Assembly: GCA_016788665.1 (NCBI GenBank)
Contig: JAEUSF010000004.1
Location: forward strand, 29,407-93,406
DNA length: 64,000 nucleotides
Origin: Candidatus Doudnabacteria bacterium
Lineage (GTDB): Bacteria > Patescibacteriota > Doudnabacteria > UBA920
Direction of reading: 5' to 3'
The notes under the pieces are model-generated. The model saw only the letters and a list, made by a program, of their open reading frames with translations, was not told the DNA's origin and made no database searches. The translations under genes were made by a program, and so were the position numbers. This document shows, in pieces, positions 2,886 to 56,991 of this stretch; the first letter of the stretch is position 1, and every line of letters starts with the position of its first letter.

Positions 2886-3476
2886 TTAGCGTCTTCCGAA
2901 ACGTGCAAAATGGGCAAATGCCTTGTTAGCCTCTGCCATTCTATGAGTGTCTTCACGCTTCTTTATAGCTGATCCGACTTTGTTAAAACCGTCAACTATT
3001 TCTGCAGCAAGCTTCTGTGCCATAGGGGCGCCTTTTCTGGCTCTTGCAGCGGCTATAAGCCACTTCATACCAATACTGGTTCTTCTTGGCTCGGAAACTT
3101 CCATAGGTACCTGATAGTTCGCACCACCAATTCGGCGGGACTTAAGTTCCATAATTGGAGCAATATTTTTCAAAGCAATATCAAAAACTTGTCTGCCATC
3201 TAACTTGGTGACTTTTGGCTGTTTTAAGTCTTCTTTTGCACCCGACTTGTCTTCCGAAGTCTTGGCAGGAGAAACTTTAACCGGTGCCGGAGCAGCCGGA
3301 GTTAAAGAAGCAGCTTTCTCTCCCACTATTTCTAAAGCAGAATAAAAAATCTTGCGAGCAACATTTTTCTTTCCGCGTTCCATCATATAATTTATAAATT
3401 TGGAATACTTAACAGAACCGAATTTTGGATCCGGCTCAGGAGTATGTTTGTCGTATGATCTAGATTTTCTTGGCAT
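2886..3476 (-). CDS. rpsG: 30S ribosomal protein S7 carrying a roughly 35-aa Ala/Pro/Lys-rich insertion
   Basis: N-terminus MPRK..DPKFGS and C-terminus KREDTHRMAEANKAFAHF are canonical S7. It is 196 aa rather than about 156, with the low-complexity insert AASLTPAAPAPVKVSPAKTSEDKSGAKEDLKQPK. Confidence 0.9.
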   Translation of the reverse strand: MPRKSRSYDKHTPEPDPKFGSVKYSKFINYMMERGKKNVARKIFYSALEIVGEKAASLTPAAPAPVKVSPAKTSEDKSGAKEDLKQPKVTKLDGRQVFDIALKNIAPIMELKSRRIGGANYQVPMEVSEPRRTSIGMKWLIAAARARKGAPMAQKLAAEIVDGFNKVGSAIKKREDTHRMAEANKAFAHFARFGRR

Positions 3477-3568
3477 GATAGTAAATTTAAAATGTAAATC
3501 TCAAAGTGTAAAATATAGGTGTCTCGCCCTGCGAGACTCTATAATTTTTCATTTTGATTTTTAAATTT

Positions 3569-3982
3569 TTACTTTCTCTTAGCTCCGTATTTAGAGCGAC
3601 TACCTTTTCTCCCGTCGACTCCGAGAGTATCTAACTTACCGCGAACAATATGGTAACGGACACCAGGCAAATCTTTTACCCTGCCGCCGCGTATCATAAC
3701 CACACTGTGTTCCTGAAGGTTATGCCCTATTCCAGGAATATAGGCAATAACTTCCATACCGTTTGTCAGCTTAATTTTGGCAACTTTACGCAAAGCCGAG
3801 TTTGGCTTTTTTGGTGTGGTGGTATAGACCTTAAGACACACTCCGCGCATAAAAGGAGCACCTTTCCTTAAAGGGACTTCCCTATTCTTTAAAAGGTTCA
3901 ATCTATGCTGCAAAGCCGGAGACTTGGACTTGGCTCTGAGCGGCGATCTGCCTTTTCTAACTAACTGGTTGATTGTTGGCAT
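3569..3982 (-). CDS. rpsL: 30S ribosomal protein S12
   Basis: [12 protein letters not shown]..; 137 aa; canonical S12. Confidence 0.95.
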
Positions 3983-4065
3983 TTTGCTAGCTGGTAGCTA
4001 GTAGCTAGTAGGTTTGTAACCTGTATTTCCTACAAGCTACCACCTACTTCCTACAAGCTAAATAA
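3983..4065 (-). promoter_or_regulatory. Structured leader immediately upstream of the rpsL start (long imperfect inverted repeat)
   Basis: GCTAGCTGGTAGCTAGTAGCTAGTAGG ... CCTACAAGCTACCACCTACTTCCTACAAGC; the arms are near-complementary (GGTAGCT[A/T]GTAGG) and the tract abuts the ATG. Confidence 0.3.
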
Positions 4066-4363: not shown

Positions 4364-4954
4364 TTAGCCGACTATAACACTCAAAACAACTCTATACAAA
4401 GGCTCAACCAATACCGACAAAAGCCCTGTCATAACCAAAATTATTAAAACTATAAACCCATAGCTCTCCCACTTTAAAATATTTTCCTGCCAAGACCTAG
4501 GTGCTACTGACAATAAAACCTTACTTCCGTCCAAAGGCGGGATAGGAATTAAGTTAAAAACTCCAAGTGCAATATTTAAAAAGATTCCCCTGCCTAAAAC
4601 TACTGCAGCAAAATCACTCGCCAGACCTAAGCGAATTATAAACAAAAACAAAATAGCTAGCGCAAAGTTACTTAAAGGTCCGGCTAAAGCGACCATAGCC
4701 ATGCCTAGCCGCTGAGGACGCAGATTGTCAAAATTTACCGGGACCGGCCTTGCAGCTCCAATACCAACCAAAAAAGGCATTAGTATAGACCCTATGGGGT
4801 CTATATGCGGTATTGGGTTTAAAGTTATTCTACCCGCTTCCCTAGCTGTGTCGTCACCAAACTTTTCGGCCATTAGCCCATGACTCACCTCATGAACAAC
4901 AACGGAAAAAATAAGTATTATAACGTCTATAATTTTTAATGTAGTAGCGTCCAT
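4364..4954 (-). CDS. Site-2 protease family (M50) membrane zinc metalloprotease
   Basis: HEVSHG HExxH motif in a TM helix, with the LDG motif (NLIPIPPLDGSKV) downstream; polytopic membrane protein. Confidence 0.7.
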   Translation of the reverse strand: MDATTLKIIDVIILIFSVVVHEVSHGLMAEKFGDDTAREAGRITLNPIPHIDPIGSILMPFLVGIGAARPVPVNFDNLRPQRLGMAMVALAGPLSNFALAILFLFIIRLGLASDFAAVVLGRGIFLNIALGVFNLIPIPPLDGSKVLLSVAPRSWQENILKWESYGFIVLIILVMTGLLSVLVEPLYRVVLSVIVG

Positions 4955-6612: not shown

Positions 6613-7054
6613 TTTTTAAAGGTTTTAAGTTAGAAGCCAAGCCCAAAGCCAAAGCTATAAGTACTAAATTTTTAATAATATACTGCCCTTCTAAAGTTGG
6701 TACAAAGGCCGACTGCCAAGCGACTTCGGGTAAAAAAACCAAAGGCATTAAAGTCATACCCATATGCAAAATAAACAAGGGTACTACTAACCTTAAAGCT
6801 TTCGGAAACAAAAACAAGCAACCTATAAACATTTCAAAAATCGCAAACAAAACAATAAATGTACTAAAGCTTAAAAACGGCAAGGTTTTTTGCTGCAAGT
6901 CCATAACTAAAGGATTAGCTGGAGAAACGTCTAAAATTTTTAGCAAACCAAACCAGAAATAAACAACAAACAAACTAAATCTTGCCAAAGGAATAGAAAT
7001 CTTTCTAGAAAAATTTATGAGCTTTTCGTCAAAGTCTAATATTTTATTTTGCAT
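6605..7054 (-). CDS. DoxX-like membrane protein
   Basis: 149 aa, 4 TM, FSLFVVYFWFGLLKI-type DoxX pattern; the start overlaps the maf stop. Confidence 0.4.
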   Translation of the reverse strand: MQNKILDFDEKLINFSRKISIPLARFSLFVVYFWFGLLKILDVSPANPLVMDLQQKTLPFLSFSTFIVLFAIFEMFIGCLFLFPKALRLVVPLFILHMGMTLMPLVFLPEVAWQSAFVPTLEGQYIIKNLVLIALALGLASNLKPLKNV

Positions 7055-7088
7055 AATTTAAATTCTACTCATTACATAAATCAATTTC

Positions 7089-7162
7089 TGGTCGGGCTGC
7101 TGGGAATCGAACCCAGACTACATCCACCCCATGGACGCGTACTACCACTATACTACAGCCCG
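7089..7162 (-). tRNA. tRNA-Pro (anticodon GGG)
   Basis: Hand-folded: acceptor CGGGCTG/CAGCCCG, T-arm CTGGG-TTCGATT-CCCAG, anticodon loop ATGGGGT, 3' CCA encoded. Confidence 0.8.
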
Positions 7163-7193
7163 CGAATTCAAAAGCTTCATATATTTTAACAAA

Positions 7194-7236
7194 AGAAGCC
7201 AAAAAAAAGAAGGCTCGAGAAATTTCGAGCCTTTTA
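7194..7236. terminator. Bidirectional rho-independent terminator (GGCTCGA-gaaatt-TCGAGCC flanked by A8 and T4)
   Basis: Perfect 7-bp stem with an A-run upstream and a T-run downstream; sits between tRNA-Pro and the ORF at 7254-7574. Confidence 0.5.
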
Positions 7237-7253
7237 GGCATTCAGAGGGTCAA

Positions 7254-7574
7254 TTAGACTCCCCAGCCGTATGTCGTCTCATAGTTGGTGAGTGGCCTTT
7301 GTAGAGGCATCTGTTCCAAACGATTGACCATCTTTGGCCCATCCAGCAAAGTATCTCCCGCCAAACCATGGGACCGGTCGTTTAGGAAAACACAGCACAG
7401 CATTCTTTCGCCGCTCACTACAACCAAAACGTGCACAGTTCGATCATGAAGCTTACGTGCTTCGTATGATTCGACAATAGCCATCGCTGGATTTTCCCCG
7501 AACGTCATACAAACTTCCTGCCCTTTGCTAAAGGGTCCAACGACTTCCCTGTGAACACGCAATATACGTTCCAT
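7254..7574 (-). CDS. Hypothetical protein (106 aa) in the GC-rich island
   Basis: GGAGGAG Shine-Dalgarno 6 nt upstream of the ATG and a terminator downstream. About 50% GC by eye, against the AT-rich flanks. Confidence 0.45.
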   Translation of the reverse strand: MERILRVHREVVGPFSKGQEVCMTFGENPAMAIVESYEARKLHDRTVHVLVVVSGERMLCCVFLNDRSHGLAGDTLLDGPKMVNRLEQMPLQRPLTNYETTYGWGV

Positions 7575-7650
7575 TATACTCCTCCAACCAAAGTTTTTAC
7601 TGCCAAAAAATAGGTTTCAAAAATTTAAAAACTATTTTTTTGCAACAAAA

Positions 7651-7676
7651 GAAAAACCCCCTTTGCAGGGGGTTTT
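7651..7676. terminator. Rho-independent terminator hairpin AAAACCCCC-tttgc-AGGGGGTTTT
   Basis: Perfect G/C stem flanked by A- and T-runs. Confidence 0.6.
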
Positions 7677-7848
7677 AAGCTTAAATACTTTAAAACGCCA
7701 CCTGCTTTAGGGGGTAATAATAATTATGCTGCTGTTCTGTACGCATTTCATATATGTATATATTATCAAAACAAACTTAGTTGTCAAATAAAAAAGCCGA
7801 TAAAAGTGGCTTTATGTGCAATTGCCTAAATGGCAAAATACAAAGCAC

Positions 7849-8235
7849 TTATTCGACTTGGGAGTTGTGAGAACTTGTCCCTAAAGATGGCCTAGGCGGC
7901 GGCGAATTATAGCGGGTGCCGGTAAAGGCATCCATTCCTTTGCGCTCACACAGAAGATTCAGCTCCTCGTCACTCAATTCTTCTACTACACGAATTTCCG
8001 GCTCCTGGCTAATCACGATTTTTCCCTCTTGTTTACTGGCGTTAAGGCACATTTTCATGCGCCCAAAGCATAGCCAACTTTTTAGATACGCTTTGGGAAT
8101 ATGAAATTTTTGGGAAGAGACAGCGCCGAATGTCTCTGTGTTATGTGGTTTGGAAAAGATTAGCACACGTGCTAGAATCTTTTTTTGTACACAAACAACA
8201 CTCGGCGCCGGCAAGGTTGGGGGCAGTCCGCCCAT
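7849..8235 (-). CDS. Questionable ORF (128 aa) in the GC-rich island
   Basis: No RBS and a low-complexity product; may be non-coding. Confidence 0.15.
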   Translation of the reverse strand: MGGLPPTLPAPSVVCVQKKILARVLIFSKPHNTETFGAVSSQKFHIPKAYLKSWLCFGRMKMCLNASKQEGKIVISQEPEIRVVEELSDEELNLLCERKGMDAFTGTRYNSPPPRPSLGTSSHNSQVE

Positions 8236-8940
8236 ACATTAGTTCTGAACAAAGCAAGCCTATGTTAGCTTTTAGCTGCCGATTACTTGGTCAACTCGTT
8301 TGTCAGTTGGAGATCAATAACAGCATCGCTGAAGCTCTTGCTGAGCTTCAAACTTAGCCCGACCTGGCTTGTTACCGGTTAACCGAAGAAGTGCCTCGGT
8401 CCAGTCTCGAACTGTGTCGCTTTTAGGTTCTTGATCCCTGTTTTTCGTCGGAATAAGGTCTGGTTCCTCATTCATCGGAAACATCCTCCGGTTTGATTGC
8501 CCGCCGACAGAGGCGGGCTTGGAGACTTACAAGGCAGTCAGCGTCGGTTAACGCTTTTTTAGTTGAACTCGTTTGTGACGAGCTCAATATAGACTGCCCA
8601 AATTGGCGGGACCTACGCGGCGGTGTTCGTTTCCGCTCGATCGACACAGAATTCCTGCAGGGCAGGCTCCGTGGAAGGTAAAAAGGATAATAAGTATCAA
8701 CCTCTCCTTCTCGGTCCCTAATTGTCGGGTGGATTTCGAATCCAGATAATTGTTCTCTTTCTCTCTCCGTGCGCTTACCCAAAAGAGAACAACCTATCTG
8801 GTTCTATTGGAAGCCACTTGCTTCACCTGGCTCCAGCCAGAGGCCGCTATTTAGCGGTCACAGCCACCCATAACTTTTGTAGACTTTGCGTCCACAGGCA
8901 TACAAACTTTTAAAAATTTATACGCCTGCAAACGCATTTT

Positions 8941-8966
8941 AAAACCCCGCTTCTTGCGGGGTTTAG
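8941..8966. terminator. Terminator-like hairpin AAAACCCCGC-ttcttgc-GGGGTTT, a near-copy of the 7651 hairpin
   Basis: Same AAAACCCC..GGGGTTT architecture as 7651-7676; followed by a second stem AAGGTGT..ACACCTT. Confidence 0.45.
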
Positions 8967-9184
8967 AAGGTGTGGTTTTTAATCCGTGTTTACACCTTAC
9001 CCCGCGCGCCAAAAAGTACGGCCTTCACAAAGACCGGGCGAATGGAAATAAGATTGTATATATTCTGTATCATCTTAAAAAGAATATTATACCCAATGTT
9101 TACTGTTGTCAAGCAAGTTATCAACAAGAGACAAAATGCAAAATTAAAAATTCAGAATGCAGAAATAAAAAGCCGTTAAAATTA

Positions 9185-9556
9185 TTATAAGTTTTTTTTT
9201 GCTGAGTTACTTGAGGCAATCATAATAGCCAATATCTCATGAGCTTCTTGCAAAAGGCTTTCCATTTTATTAAACGGTAATAGAGCCAAATCAATTAACA
9301 ACTCCATCCAAAAAATTGATTCATCGCATTCTTCAATCACAATACCAATTTTCGATATAAACTCAAGCTTAGACCGCGCTCTACACGCTGCCCTATAATT
9401 TGCCCCAACAGAGGTTCCGCATCGGAATAATTGATTCCCAATAATACTTCCTTCGTAATTTTTTGGAAGAGCTCGGCAGAGCTTAACTATCCTTATTGTA
9501 AAAGACTTTGTTCGGATTTTTAAGTCTTTGTCGGGCATAACATTTTGCACTCTCAA
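9185..9556 (-). CDS. Four-helix-bundle protein (23S rRNA intervening-sequence protein family)
   Basis: GSIIGNQLFRCGTSVGANYRAA motif characteristic of the TIGR02436/PF05635 family; 123 aa. Confidence 0.65.
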   Translation of the reverse strand: MRVQNVMPDKDLKIRTKSFTIRIVKLCRALPKNYEGSIIGNQLFRCGTSVGANYRAACRARSKLEFISKIGIVIEECDESIFWMELLIDLALLPFNKMESLLQEAHEILAIMIASSNSAKKNL

Positions 9557-9574
9557 TTTTCAGTTCTTCATTTT

Positions 9575-10540
9575 CTAAACTGTTAAATATCCACCGCCCT
9601 GCTCTACTGCTTTTTCAGCCATTTTATGAACAATGTCATTTAACTCTTCTTCACTGTAAAAGTCTATAAGAATTTTACCCGCTTGGCCTTGTCTTTGAAT
9701 TTTTACCTGAGCCCCAAGCTTTATGCGCAGTTCAGATTCCATTGCCATAAGTTTTGGGTCTGGAGCTGCCGCATCCATACTCTTTTTGGCTGTAAGCTCT
9801 CTAACTTTGTTTTCCACCTGCCTTACAGTCCAGTTATCTTCCATGGCTTTCTTAGCCATTAAAATAATTTTTTCCGGATCTTGTAAACCCAAAAGTCCCC
9901 TGGCATGACCTTCGCTTAAACGGCCTTCTATAACAAACCTCTGAACCTCTGCGGGAAGGTTAAGCAAACGCACAGTATTAGCTACCGCTGGCCTAGACTT
10001 ACCAACCTTTTTAGCCACCTGCTCTTGAGTAAGGCTAAACATAGTCATAAGCTTGCTATAAGCCTGACCATCTTCTATTGGGTTTAGTTCCTGGCGCTGA
10101 ATATTTTCTATAAGTGCAACTTCAAGCTTAGTCTGGTCAACCATTTCTTCCTTAATAATGGCAGGAACCATAGTAAGTCCCGCCAACTGGCTTGCCCGAA
10201 AACGCCTTTCACCCACTACCAACTCATAACCAGTCGGGGTTTTTATAACTACCAAAGGCTGAATAACCCCATGTTCTTTTATGGAGTCGGAAAGCTCTTT
10301 TAAAGCATTTGGTTCAAAAACTTTTCTTGGCTGAAAAGGGTTAGGAACTATTTTATCTATTTCAATCTGGTCAATACGTGCCCCTTCATAAGAAACTCTT
10401 TCAGAGACTTGGGCAGACACAACCGGCACTGCGGCAACAGACGCTTCTGAAACCGGTGGTACAGGAGCAGGCAAAATTGTTTCAAAACTGTCTAACGGCT
10501 GGATAGTTACGCTTGGCTGCGAGATAGAAATTGGGTCCAT
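9575..10540 (-). CDS. parB: ParB/Spo0J-like partition protein with an N-terminal Pro/Val-rich extension
   Basis: LVVGERRFRASQLAGL ParB box, HTH and C-terminal dimerisation region; 321 aa. Confidence 0.8.
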   Translation of the reverse strand: MDPISISQPSVTIQPLDSFETILPAPVPPVSEASVAAVPVVSAQVSERVSYEGARIDQIEIDKIVPNPFQPRKVFEPNALKELSDSIKEHGVIQPLVVIKTPTGYELVVGERRFRASQLAGLTMVPAIIKEEMVDQTKLEVALIENIQRQELNPIEDGQAYSKLMTMFSLTQEQVAKKVGKSRPAVANTVRLLNLPAEVQRFVIEGRLSEGHARGLLGLQDPEKIILMAKKAMEDNWTVRQVENKVRELTAKKSMDAAAPDPKLMAMESELRIKLGAQVKIQRQGQAGKILIDFYSEEELNDIVHKMAEKAVEQGGGYLTV

Positions 10541-10680: not shown

Positions 10681-10750
10681 CCCATTTAAACAAGAATACC
10701 TTAACTTTTTCCTATTTACTTTAAACGAACCTATATATTTTAGCAAAAGA

Positions 10751-11287: not shown

Positions 11288-12090
11288 CTTATTAAATAGA
11301 CAATTAAAATTAACGCTGCAACAATAAGTCTATAAAAGGCAAATACCTTAAAATCGTGACTGGCTAAAAACTTTAACAAGTATTTAATCGACAAAAACCC
11401 AAAAATAGCTGCTGAAATAAAACCTACGATTAAAGGACCGTAAGAAACCCCCGCGCCAAACTCCCCAGCCTTAACCAAACCCGCGCCAAAAATTATGGGT
11501 GCCGACATAAGAAAACTAAACCTTGCAGCATCTGCCCGTTTAAAACCTAAAAGCAAGCCCATAGCCATAGTACTTCCGCTTCTGGAGACCCCGGGCACAA
11601 TTGCCAAAGCCTGGCTCAAGCCAACCAACAAAGCATCTTTTCTGGTTATACGGTCTAAATTTTTTTGTTTTTTTCCTAAATAATCTACCGCATAAATTAT
11701 AAAACCGAAAATAGAAAGCGTAAAAGCAATTAACAAAGGATTGCGAAAAGTTTTTTCAGCATGCTCTTCCAAAAGTTTTCCTATAACCGCCCCGGGTACA
11801 CTGGCTAAAATAAGCAACCAAGAAAGTTTTTGATAAATATTATTTTCAAAATTCCTAGTACTCTTAAACAAACTATGCCAAAAACCTCTTATTAAATCTC
11901 TTATGTCAGTTCTAAAATACACCAATACGGCCAAAAGCGTACCCCAGTGTAAAGCCAAGTCAAAGCCTAAACCAGGGTCTTTCCAATTAAAAAGCCAAGG
12001 TGTAATAACTAAATGAGCAGAAGAAGAAATAGGCAAAAACTCTCCCAAACCCTGAACCATACCCAAAATAAACGCCTGGAATATATTCAT
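11284..12090 (-). CDS. uppP: Undecaprenyl-diphosphatase UppP/BacA
   Basis: N-terminus MNIFQAFILGMVQGLGEFLPISSSAHL; 268 aa. Confidence 0.85.
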   Translation of the reverse strand: MNIFQAFILGMVQGLGEFLPISSSAHLVITPWLFNWKDPGLGFDLALHWGTLLAVLVYFRTDIRDLIRGFWHSLFKSTRNFENNIYQKLSWLLILASVPGAVIGKLLEEHAEKTFRNPLLIAFTLSIFGFIIYAVDYLGKKQKNLDRITRKDALLVGLSQALAIVPGVSRSGSTMAMGLLLGFKRADAARFSFLMSAPIIFGAGLVKAGEFGAGVSYGPLIVGFISAAIFGFLSIKYLLKFLASHDFKVFAFYRLIVAALILIVYLIR

Positions 12091-29283: not shown

Positions 29284-30114
29284 ATGAAACTCAGCGTGTT
29301 AGGGTGCGGAGCTCCGGTGTCTCACTTGCCAAACGTAAACACTCAAAGCCCCTCTGCCTATATTTTGGAATGGGGCCATGGCGGAAAACTTCTGCTTGAA
29401 TGTAGCACAGGCATTCAGGACAGGCTTAAAAAGAAAGGATTCGATATAGCAGAAATTCAGCACATATTCCTGTCGCATATTCATACAGACCACGTAGGAG
29501 GATTCCCAAGTTTATACCAAGACCTCTGGCTCAATACATTATGGGAGAAATCGGACGAAAGACGGCTAAAGGCATCATCCACCCGGACCATTTACTGTTC
29601 CAGGCAAACATCCACTAACCTGCTAAAAATTTTACGGCTGCTTATGCCGGAAAGCAAAGGCAGGCTCTACCCCTACCCCGAACTCAACTTTGTGGACATT
29701 CAAAACAAAGCCCGCTTGGAATTGAATGGGGCCAAACTTACAACAGTACCAACCTTCCATGGATCCGGCATGGTTAGAAGCTTGGCTATTCGGGTAGAAA
29801 ACTACGAGGGCGTATTTGTATACTCGGGCGACACCGGAATATGCCAGGGCATTGAAGACATCTGTCGGGGTGCCGACCTGTTTTTATGCGAAGCCTGCGC
29901 AATAACCGACGCAGAAATGCGTGCCCGCGGCCACCTCACACCAAAACAAGCCGGTCTCCTAGCAAAAAATGGCGGGGTCAAAAAACTTGTCCTCACCCAT
30001 CTAGCCGCCCCCCGCCTGCATGATTTGGAGCCTGTAATCCAAGAGGCTCTCAGCTCCGGATTTGCAGGTAAAATCCAAATTGCCCAAGACGGAGACGTTA
30101 TTAACCTGCCCTAA
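29284..30114 (+). CDS. MBL-fold metallo-hydrolase (RNase Z/ElaC-like short form)
   Basis: HIHTDHVGG HxHxDH motif, AAGGAGG Shine-Dalgarno, terminator downstream; noticeably GC-richer than neighbours. Confidence 0.65.
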   Translation: MKLSVLGCGAPVSHLPNVNTQSPSAYILEWGHGGKLLLECSTGIQDRLKKKGFDIAEIQHIFLSHIHTDHVGGFPSLYQDLWLNTLWEKSDERRLKASSTRTIYCSRQTSTNLLKILRLLMPESKGRLYPYPELNFVDIQNKARLELNGAKLTTVPTFHGSGMVRSLAIRVENYEGVFVYSGDTGICQGIEDICRGADLFLCEACAITDAEMRARGHLTPKQAGLLAKNGGVKKLVLTHLAAPRLHDLEPVIQEALSSGFAGKIQIAQDGDVINLP

Positions 30115-56247: not shown

Positions 56248-56991
56248 ATGACAAGAACGCTAACGGCGCTCTTTTTATTTGTATGTCTGGTCGCCCAGGC
56301 ATACGGAGTTACCATGACGGTATCGCCGGGCAACATGAACGGCTGGGCATTTATCACCGAAAGCGGGACACCTACAGGCACCCTAGTTAATGGACCCGGA
56401 TCCCCGCCTGCGGGTACCGGAAGTGCAGAATTCACCGTATTGACTTCCGGCGACCGCTTACTGCTTTCCACGCTCAACCACAACGGGCTCGGGCTGTCCG
56501 AAATTACTACCCTGTCTTATAGCACATACCGTCAAGCCGGCGGAAGCGCCCTTGCGGTATCCCTTCAGTTCGACATCGACACCGATTCGACGGATGCAAA
56601 CACCAGCTGGATGGGACGTCTCGTATACGAGGCATACTATACCCAGACTGTACTGGACAACACCTGGCAGACCTGGAACACGATGACCACCGGGGCCAAC
56701 TGGTGGTTCTCAGGCGCTCCTGGGAACGCAACTTGTTCTATCGGTTCACCCTGCACGTGGGCTCAAGTCCTCACCGCCTTTCCAAATGCCGCCATAAACG
56801 GCAATACGAACCTTAAGGGCGGAGGCGGGTGGAGTGGCTTCATTGGTAATGTGGATAATCTACGCCTCGCTACTCAGAGGTTTGATACAACCTACGACTT
56901 TGAAGCTCAAAATCAGGTACCCGAACCATCGACGCTTCTGCTTATGAGCATAGGGCTCGCAGGTCTCTGGGCAAAACGCAGGCGGTCATAA
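56248..56991 (+). CDS. Secreted PEP-CTERM sorting-signal protein, GC-rich
   Basis: Signal peptide MTRTLTALFLFVCLVAQAYG. C-terminal VPEPSTLLLMSIGLAGLWAKRRRS is PEP + hydrophobic helix + Arg cluster. Roughly 55% GC by eye. Confidence 0.6.
   Translation: MTRTLTALFLFVCLVAQAYGVTMTVSPGNMNGWAFITESGTPTGTLVNGPGSPPAGTGSAEFTVLTSGDRLLLSTLNHNGLGLSEITTLSYSTYRQAGGSALAVSLQFDIDTDSTDANTSWMGRLVYEAYYTQTVLDNTWQTWNTMTTGANWWFSGAPGNATCSIGSPCTWAQVLTAFPNAAINGNTNLKGGGGWSGFIGNVDNLRLATQRFDTTYDFEAQNQVPEPSTLLLMSIGLAGLWAKRRRS

Follow-up and report, generated by a model that had tools for sequence, protein, structure and literature searches.

What is a stretch of about 2 kb with very few genes doing beside a tRNA-Pro gene in the genome of a member of Candidatus Doudnabacteria? 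The stretch, called the island below, covers positions 7196-9184 of the window, i.e., the whole 64,000-nucleotide (nt) piece of DNA that was analysed, and its features have the same orientation as the neighbouring genes, on the minus strand. A preliminary description had proposed that it is the remnant of an element integrated at the tRNA gene or, alternatively, that the segment from 8.2 to 8.95 kb encodes a structured RNA. The comparison with related genomes indicates that the region is a conserved minus-strand locus of Candidatus Doudnabacteria and not an integration leftover. The reading favoured here, with moderate confidence, is that the locus carries two tandem ribosome-mediated (leader-peptide) transcription attenuators, the second probably responsive to isoleucine (Ile), which would control orphan small genes.

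The ParB protein encoded close to the island (9575-10540) places the organism in Candidatus Doudnabacteria. Eleven related loci were used for comparison: L001 was reached through a relative of the 106-amino acid (aa) protein encoded in the island, and ten further distinct loci were reached through ParB. The ParB proteins of these loci are 72-90% identical to that of the window (90% for L066). Promoters and terminators are in excess, i.e., 11 promoters in the scan vs. 4.7 in shuffled sequences, and 10 terminators vs. 2.7. The first transcription unit (unit 1) is composed as follows.

9084-9112, minus strand: promoter P1, with -35 box TTGACA (9112-9107) and -10 box TATAAT/TAATAT; 10 of 12 matches in the consensus scan
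8990-9073, minus strand: leader open reading frame (ORF) 1, 27 codons plus TAA, MIQNIYNLISIRPVFVKAVLFGARGKV
9019-9036, minus strand: hairpin inside leader ORF 1, CGGTC..GGCCG followed by a U run; terminator-like in the scan
8992-9005, minus strand: region 2 of attenuator 1, GCGGGG-U-AAGGUGU, formed by the last codons and the stop of leader ORF 1; 5' strand of the antiterminator
8956-8973, minus strand: region 3 of attenuator 1, ACACCUU..CCCCGC, which pairs with region 2 or with region 4; 5' arm of T1
8942-8964, minus strand: terminator T1, AAACCCCGC aagaa GCGGGGUUU; this is the hairpin that the preliminary description had placed "at 8941"

Both boxes of P1 are the same in the window, L001 and L066, and all 11 loci retain TTGACA. 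The ATG of leader ORF 1 (9073) lies approximately 10-12 nt past the -10 box; the ORF is therefore leaderless or nearly so. A homologous ORF of 27-32 codons with an invariant ATG is open in 11/11 related loci, and the other two frames carry stops in each of them. In close pairs, the ratio of nonsynonymous to synonymous changes (dN/dS) is 0.15-0.29, most changes being synonymous, and the peptide has a conserved core, P-V-F-x-K-A-V-h-F. The hairpin inside the ORF keeps its stem with changed sequences, i.e., CGGTC/GGCCG, CGACC/GGTCG (L097) and CGGTA/TACCG (L092). This hairpin (9036-9019) would act as an RNA polymerase pause hairpin.

T1 has a 9-bp stem (-15.2 kcal/mol) and a U run, and is found in 11/11 loci with lineage-specific stems. 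The alternative pairing is equally general. The duplex between regions 2 and 3 (2:3) reaches -22.6 kcal/mol in the window and -14 to -24 kcal/mol across the 11 loci (RNAduplex), with z-scores of -1.2 to -5.2 with reference to shuffles. The inner stem differs from lineage to lineage: GGUGU/ACACC, UUGGUUU/AAACCAA, UUUGGU/ACCAAA (L090, L092 and L093) or GGUGA/UCACC. Regions 2, 3 and 4 co-vary, GCGGGG/CCCCGC/GCGGGG being replaced by GGGCAG/CUGCCC/GGCAGG in L097. The stop codon of leader ORF 1 is located inside region 2, or at most 17 nt from it, in all loci. MAFFT alignments of distant P1 leaders lose the register of the helices; therefore, column counts were replaced by duplex energies computed for each sequence and its shuffles, and by a covariance-model search. 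The covariance model of the antiterminator form (R2) recovers 9 loci; the covariance-model alignment included three spurious matches and was not used for pair counting.

The second transcription unit (unit 2) lies further along the same strand.

7760-7787, minus strand: promoter P2, TTGACA, 16 nt, (TG)n TAATAT; 10 of 12 matches with TG in the consensus scan
7707-7751, minus strand: leader ORF 2, 14 codons plus TAA, MKCVQNSSIIIITP; precedes the 106-aa ORF
7653-7715, minus strand: attenuator 2 RNA, made of region 1 ACCCCCU (7715-7709), region 2 GCAGGUGGCGUUUUAAA (7705-7689), region 3 (7678-7665) and T2
7653-7676, minus strand: terminator T2, the top-ranked terminator in the scan; the hairpin previously placed "at 7651"
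7595-7650, minus strand: AU-rich inverted repeat with 27-nt arms (81% complementary), between T2 and the ribosome-binding site (RBS) of the 106-aa ORF

P2 does not vary among the close relatives and is also conserved in L067, L090 and L092; the ATG of unit 2 is located 8 nt past its -10 box. Leader ORF 2 contains four consecutive Ile codons (AUA AUU AUU AUU), followed by Thr-Pro-stop. Its relatives read MKR(M/I)QNSSIIIITP, MKFLKNSLIVVIITP(D/E)RQAAV and MKFNSTNLNINIIITPDRQAAF. All six leader ORF 2 sequences keep ATTATTATTACCCC unchanged and have 2-4 successive Ile codons before Thr-Pro. The AU-rich inverted repeat, a predicted hairpin, is nearly invariant in L001 and L066. P2-type leaders precede two protein families, i.e., the 106-aa family and the small ORF 2 (sORF2) family described below (as in L090).

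The RNA of unit 2 can be folded in several exclusive ways. Region 1, which corresponds to the Thr-Pro codons, has two possible partners, region 2 and the 3' arm of T2; region 2 can also pair with the 5' arm of T2. RNAalifold gives the 2:3 pairing nested within a 1:4 pairing. In the fold without a ribosome, a composite hairpin ending at the U run is obtained. When the footprint of a ribosome is masked, the 2:3 helix forms if the A site is at Ile9, and the 3:4 terminator forms if the ribosome is at the stop codon.

Both units thus have the parts of an attenuator: (i) a leader ORF just after the promoter and before the regulated gene; (ii) an intrinsic terminator between leader ORF and gene, T1 and T2 being present in all homologous leaders; (iii) an exclusive antiterminator that uses the 5' arm of the terminator and has its other strand at the end of the leader ORF. 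At the stalling position, unit 2 has a cluster of four Ile codons; unit 1 has only scattered Ile, Leu and Val codons (positions 8-11) and its conserved peptide motif. These promoters, ORFs, terminators and alternative pairings, together with their conservation and covariation in relatives, can be read from the genomes compared. We infer from them that ribosome position would decide termination in both units, and that Ile would be the signal of unit 2. For unit 1, the candidate signals are the branched-chain amino acids, sequence-specific arrest and the general speed of translation.

The mechanism proposed is the following. P1 would start a near-leaderless ORF of 27 codons on a transcript that holds the candidate pause hairpin. 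A ribosome reaching the stop codon would cover region 2, T1 would form and transcription would end; a ribosome stalled earlier would leave region 2 free, the 2:3 antiterminator would form and the polymerase would read through. Read-through would deliver a folded leader of ~450 nt, the small ORF sORF1 (whose Shine-Dalgarno sequence would be sequestered by the last helix of that leader), a noncoding block (block C) and sORF2. In unit 2, a ribosome with its A site at Ile9 would hide region 1 and free region 2, leading to the 2:3 antiterminator; with the A site at Ile10 or later, antitermination would require that the 2:3 helix is made first, while transcription proceeds. T2 would form both when translation runs to the stop codon and when the leader is not translated. 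Given this folding logic, the 106-aa gene is most likely switched on by a shortage of charged tRNA-Ile.

The closest known systems are the leaders of ilvGMEDA (ilvL) and ilvBN (ivbL) of Escherichia coli and other Proteobacteria. They share with the present units a short leader ORF with branched-chain codons (here I-I-I-I-T-P) before a Rho-independent terminator, and an alternative antiterminator helix set by the position of the ribosome (here proposed). The folding logic of unit 2 is alike that of the ilv and thr leaders. On the contrary, the sequences of the ilv leaders have no similarity to the units described here and no leader family of Rfam or NCBIfam was matched; the present ORFs are leaderless or nearly so, the targets are orphan small proteins and the genome is a reduced one of the Candidate Phyla Radiation (CPR). 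Unit 1 has the full four-region layout of the trp attenuator (trpL; 1:2 pause, 2:3 antiterminator, 3:4 terminator), i.e., a hairpin with a U run inside the ORF, a stop codon at which a terminating ribosome would cover region 2, and similarity between regions 2 and 4. It differs from trpL in that it has no tandem codons for one amino acid and in that the peptide itself is conserved. With the ermC, ermB and cat leaders, and with TnaC, SecM and MifM, the units share an upstream short ORF whose translation remodels the RNA, and unit 1 a conserved motif. Most of those leaders control the translation of a known resistance or secretion gene, whereas here the output would be transcription termination. 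Neither leader-peptide attenuation in CPR/Patescibacteria nor this locus turned up in full-text literature searches.

Between T1 and the small genes lies the segment in which a structured RNA had been suspected.

8486-8937, minus strand: structured leader RNA of ~450 nt, with a 23-bp hairpin, a multi-branch domain, further hairpins and a final helix

The 23-bp hairpin is located at 8937-8887. The multi-branch domain (8874-8724) is closed by the invariant blocks GUU.GGGUGG/CCACCC.GAC and carries the invariant loop AGCGCACGGAGAGAGA. The final helix, CUCC/GGAG (8524-8486), pairs the Shine-Dalgarno sequence of sORF1 and is paired in the window, L001 and L066. The local stems noticed in the preliminary description at 8731-8745 and 8840-8865 exist and belong to this conserved fold. 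The minimum free energy of 8940-8485 is -182 kcal/mol; with reference to shuffles, z = -8.2 for the minus strand vs. z = -5.4 for the plus strand. In the consensus built from the window, L001 and L066 there are 136 pairs, with 93% of the cells paired. Eighteen pairs are changed on both sides, vs. 1-5 in slid controls and 18 reached in 0 of 500 shuffles; this count comes from two lineages and from a structure derived from the same three sequences.

According to the covariance model of the multi-branch domain, the folded leader is carried by the window, L001 and L066 only, and one doubtful reduced form is seen in L093 (E = 1). No promoter was seen between T1 and the folded segment, and the segment is therefore read as a leader reached by read-through of T1. 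The idea of a structured RNA in this part of the island thus holds in part, in that 8940-8485 folds beyond shuffles with compensatory changes. The folded segment is best read as the long leader of the small-gene transcript behind the attenuator and not as a free-standing RNA of a known kind, an independent function being less likely.

The genes and signals that follow the leader, including two on the plus strand, are listed here.

8314-8475, minus strand: sORF1, 53 aa, MNEEPDLIPTKNRDQ...QELQRCCY; Shine-Dalgarno sequence GGAGGA 9 nt upstream
8091-8210, minus strand: block C, 120 nt, noncoding; inverted repeat TAGCAC-GT-GTGCTA and hairpin AGAGACA..TGTCTCT
7849-8016, minus strand: sORF2, window version, GTG start, 55 aa
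7792-7813, minus strand: weak terminator-like hairpin AAGCC..GGCUU plus U run, which ends the sORF1-sORF2 unit just upstream of P2
7254-7586, minus strand: 106-aa ORF (7574-7254) with RBS GGAGGAG (7586-7580); lineage-restricted orphan
7210-7233, minus strand: terminator T3 of the 106-aa gene, 9-bp stem then T8; conserved in L001 and L066
8150-8178, plus strand: promoter-like site TTGGAA-17-TAGAAT with TG, inside block C
8540-8562, plus strand: conserved hairpin then T run, ~375 nt downstream of the plus-strand promoter-like site

sORF1 is 38% identical over 55 aa to a 57-aa ORF located at the same place in L066 (E = 2.7e-7). The sORF2 family (60-67 aa, M..DPEIR..W..TMR.P...C.DL.EE) is found in L001, L066, L090 and L095. 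In the window version, which is probably degenerate and decaying, 22 nt are deleted and only about the first 12 residues are retained. The hairpin at 7792-7813 is invariant in L001 and L066, where its stem is AGCCG/CGGCU. For the 106-aa protein, one close relative was found among 5.8 billion proteins (L001), and a HMMER search against 1.84 billion representatives gave one true relative plus two spurious matches to a repeat protein; the two close relatives over both searches are 82% and 60% identical. In L092, the P2-type leader is followed by a 130-aa ORF that can be aligned with the 106-aa family (23% identity). The AlphaFold model of the 106-aa protein, made from a 2-sequence alignment, has a pLDDT of 36 and is unusable. 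The 106-aa family is poor in Ile (1.9-4.7% vs. a mean of 6.9%), which speaks weakly for attenuation. No match of Pfam, NCBIfam or PHROGs was obtained for any ORF or leader peptide of the island.

The preliminary description was right about the ORF at 7254-7574, which is on the minus strand, encodes 106 aa and has the RBS and the terminator (7233-7210) that had been noticed, and also about the two similar hairpins (7676-7653 and 8964-8942, minus strand, each followed by a U run) and the lack of long ORFs in 7575-9184. That 106-aa ORF had been taken as the only convincing one. It is real, but the two leader ORFs (27 and 14 codons) and the 53-aa ORF are conserved in relatives as well.

Block C is 95% identical to L001 and nearly invariant in the three genomes, i.e., more conserved than the ORFs that flank it, and it overlaps promoter-like hexamers on both strands. 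The plus-strand site and the plus-strand hairpin listed above would give an RNA antisense to the whole of sORF1 and to its RBS. A 75-aa plus-strand ORF (8130-8357) is regarded as spurious: its conservation tracks the nucleotides and it reads through the plus-strand promoter.

The position of these elements in relatives bears on the question of integration. The following gene closes the locus.

7089-7162, minus strand: tRNA-Pro(GGG), the conserved distal border of the locus, outside the regulatory units

The conserved frame is tRNA-Leu(CAA), parB, the locus and tRNA-Pro(GGG). tRNA-Leu(CAA) is upstream of parB in all related loci, and parB is followed in all of them by a stretch of 1.3-2 kb holding only short ORFs. 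tRNA-Pro(GGG) closes the homologous region in 10 of the 11 loci, the contig of L092 ending before any tRNA-Pro. The gene order of the L001 contig is the same as in the window, and L066 carries the entire island. In nhmmer searches with alignment blocks of the window, L001 and L066, the P1 leader was found directly behind parB in 11/11 loci (E = 1e-45 to 3e-9) and the P2 leader in L001, L066, L067, L090 and L092. The interior of the locus differs between lineages: the folded leader, sORF1, block C and the 106-aa ORF are restricted to the closest relatives. In L070 the homologous region contains a run of ~100 N (11337-11435), most likely a scaffold gap, and its interior is not fully comparable. 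In the alignment with L001 and L066, the noncoding blocks are more conserved than the ORFs; for instance the P2 leader is almost invariant, vs. 77-86% identity for the 106-aa ORF.

The tRNA itself had been correctly identified. It had been said that the island begins immediately 3' of it, which is true in plus-strand coordinates only: the gene is on the minus strand, its 3' end is at 7089, and the island is on its 5' (upstream) side. Elements that target tRNA genes insert at the tRNA 3' end. A direct repeat of the 3' end of tRNA-Pro, i.e., an attachment (att) site, was looked for by blastn-short of 7060-7200 against the window, which gave only chance matches of at most 15 nt inside the tRNA, and a repeat search of the island region revealed no tRNA-derived repeat. 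There is no integrase, recombinase, transposase, phage or plasmid family among the ORFs of the island (Pfam, PHROGs), and the pattern of stop codons gives no sign of a long decayed frame. blastn against phage and plasmid collections gave no match, nor did a viral scan. In metagenomes, a DNA-pattern scan with an exact 24-mer found nothing and a scan with a degenerate pattern matched only a biotin-carboxylase coding motif. Integration at tRNA-Pro is thus unsupported, because the locus is syntenic in relatives, has no integrase and no tRNA repeat, and is located on the 5' side of the tRNA.

Composition had been the other argument for a foreign origin. The island is not at roughly 50% GC, as first estimated, but at 44.1%, the mean of the window being 39.5%. 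The core (7850-9000) is at 47.6%. The island ranks within the top 3% of 2-kb windows and the core within the top 1%. GC is patchy within the island, both promoter/leader stretches being at 27-32%. Equal or higher peaks, at ~29284-30114 and ~56248-56991, are ordinary protein-coding ORFs; therefore, peaks of such size are not specific to the island. These two peaks reach up to 50-54% in 500-nt windows, and one of the ORFs encodes a Gly/Pro/Thr-rich protein with a signal-peptide-like N-terminus.

How well does attenuation stand against other explanations? That the island is the remnant of a mobile element at tRNA-Pro, its higher GC and orphan small ORFs being decayed foreign DNA, appears very improbable. 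GC above the window mean (44% vs. 39.5%), an interior that is confined to the closest relatives and varies by lineage, a sporadic neighbouring gene of the 23S-rRNA-IVS family and the inverted tRNA-Pro with flanking partial copies in L001 and L066 speak for it. Nevertheless, 11/11 relatives have the locus within the same bounds and with its P1 leader, the searches revealed neither mobile-element families nor phage or plasmid similarity nor a tRNA-derived repeat in the window, the island adjoins the 5' side of the tRNA, the GC peaks of equal height are ordinary genes, and noncoding parts constrained more than ORFs are the opposite of decay. The locus adjoins a tRNA gene and is somewhat richer in GC than its surroundings, like tRNA-linked genomic islands, and differs from them by the absence of integrase and att repeats, by the tRNA side and by its occurrence at the same place in all relatives. 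No more credit can be given to a module resembling type I toxin-antitoxin systems, in which the plus-strand promoter of block C, TTGGAA-17-(TG)TAGAAT, would drive an RNA antisense to sORF1 ending at 8540-8562. The pairing at 8540-8562 is kept through two compensatory changes, with a conserved flanking A/T run, and the 95% conservation of block C is in line with such a role; sORF1 is however hydrophilic, without the features of type I toxins, and block C fits an operator or promoter of sORF2 equally well.

Structured noncoding RNA (ncRNA) genes are a more serious competitor, though still an unlikely one: P1-T1 would be a gene for a small protein or a small RNA (sRNA), the fold would be an independent RNA or would control sORF1 in a riboswitch-like manner through CUCC/GGAG, and there would be no attenuation. 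The very strong strand-specific fold (z = -8.2 vs. -5.4), the 18 compensatory pairs, the invariant loop, the long-range closing helix, the pairing of the sORF1 Shine-Dalgarno sequence in all three sequences and the strength of T1 as a terminator all agree with it. This explanation is weakened by the lack of a promoter after T1, so that the folded segment would be transcribed only by read-through, by the restriction of the folded domain to one clade whereas the P1 leader is in all relatives, and by the absence of any Rfam match; it also gives no reason for the resemblance of region 2 to the terminator 3' arm, which is seen in every lineage. Leaders of the erm, cat or tnaC type, in which the nascent peptide stalls the ribosome on an inhibitor or another small molecule, seem less probable again. 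The unit 1 peptide, P-V-F-x-K-A-V-h-F, is conserved beyond the needs of codon-run sensing, and the Ile/Val-rich motif of unit 2 with its Thr-Pro may recall the stalling motif of ErmCL, which is IFVI. No resistance gene is found downstream, the regulated ORFs having no family match, and four codons in a row for the same amino acid are the classical mark of amino-acid sensing.

Attenuation remains the preferred reading, and several observations weigh against it. In distant pairs of leader ORF 1, dN is about equal to dS, these values being based on small counts and saturated changes. The 2:3 z-score is weak (-1.2) in two of the 11 loci, and the covariation rests on few lineages, as does that of the folded leader. 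In unit 2, the antiterminator is favoured at equilibrium only with the A site at Ile9; from Ile10 onward, as in the folds for Ile10 and Ile12, the 3:4 terminator has the lowest energy. An obvious run of one codon is lacking in unit 1, whose peptide is more conserved than usual for leaders that sense amino acids. The targets, unlike those of classical attenuators, are not recognisable as genes of amino-acid supply (biosynthesis, transport or aminoacylation), since the 53-, ~55- and 106-aa ORFs match no family; CPR bacteria largely lack amino-acid biosynthesis pathways. The proteins of the sORF2 family are not Ile-poor. Finally, T1 and T2 could be plain bidirectional terminators, because both are flanked by A runs and U runs.

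Known RNA families do not account for the region. The search of Rfam that had been suggested was run at the gathering threshold on the whole window and with E up to 10 on 7100-9300, and returned tRNA only; on four related loci, with E up to 0.05, it also returned tRNAs only. None of the structured families of Rfam 15 was matched (6S, riboswitches, T-box, OLE, GOLLD, HEARO, ROOL and raiA among others). Matches to Phe_leader, Trp_leader and sRNA families are driven by the terminators and below threshold (E = 0.06-1.6 for Trp_leader and Phe_leader). The earlier search by eye for tmRNA, RNase P RNA and SRP RNA, which had found none, agrees with Rfam, and ARAGORN finds no tmRNA. Three other candidates were rejected. 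The T-loop-like UGGAUUCGAAAUCCA suggested a tmRNA-like RNA; ARAGORN gives no match and the stretch belongs to the long hairpin. The motif GGGUGG..ACCGC suggested a T-box; there is no Rfam T-box match and the motif comes after the terminator. An alternative genetic code was considered too: all three stop codons are scattered through all six frames, and recoding therefore rescues no long gene.

The gene on the far side of the island had been assigned to the 23S-rRNA-IVS family, and this assignment is correct.

9185-9556, minus strand: gene of the 23S-rRNA-IVS family (Avd-like), four-helix bundle; PF05635 (23S_rRNA_IVP), E = 1.2e-15; between parB and P1

An intact gene of this family is found between parB and P1 only in the window and in L001 (339-692). 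L096 has a copy at the same place (~4490-4880), decayed and with in-frame stops, and the gene was not found between parB and P1 in the remaining relatives. L070 has a gene of this family at a different site (4422-4775), beside a gene of the Sua5 family. Relatives of the protein in GTDB were recovered at 64 loci in many phyla, and the island is present in none of these loci. The distribution suggests a mobile or often-lost gene, sporadically inserted. The Avd-like neighbour raised the possibility of a diversity-generating retroelement, which was rejected: no ORF resembles a reverse transcriptase, and 6900-9700 contains no direct repeat longer than 18 nt.

Several observations concern the tRNA genes. 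tRNA-Pro is inverted in L001 (2887-3116), L066 (13349-13577), L090 (6893-6966), L093 (6315-6388) and L095 (6512-6585), and tRNA-Leu is inverted in L093 (3793-3876) and L095 (3238-3322). In L001 and L066, partial copies flank the inverted tRNA-Pro: one repeats 42-43 nt of its 3' part, the other its 5' part together with upstream sequence. Such flips suggest a recurrent local recombination at these tRNAs. On the minus strand, tRNA-Pro and tRNA-Leu are each preceded by a motif of 18 nt (7179-7196 and 10733-10750, respectively; 17/18 identical), possibly a promoter element common to the two tRNA genes. L092 has a LAGLIDADG_3-like ORF (3299-3993, weak Pfam match) that starts inside or beside tRNA-Leu, just upstream of parB.

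CPR genomes are tiny, encode few recognisable regulators and lack amino-acid biosynthesis, and gene regulation in these bacteria is almost uncharted. A wider interpretation, which we consider speculative and on balance doubtful, is that ribosome-mediated attenuation on leaderless ORFs couples the supply of Ile by the host or the environment to lineage-specific small proteins in CPR, and that the 450-nt segment is a new class of structured RNA (sensor or scaffold). If so, CPR bacteria would use the position of the ribosome as a sensor of nutrients or of translation on leaderless transcripts, and the three orphan small proteins would be a starvation- or stress-induced set, encoded beside parB across Doudnabacteria. 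With its 100-130 nt, the switch is compact and suited to testing in a heterologous host. The locus also illustrates that a tRNA-adjacent, GC-rich and gene-poor signature can mark a conserved regulatory locus and not the scar of a mobile element. Judging from the genomes compared, it may give a credible first glimpse of how ribosomes mediate regulation in a phylum about which little is understood.

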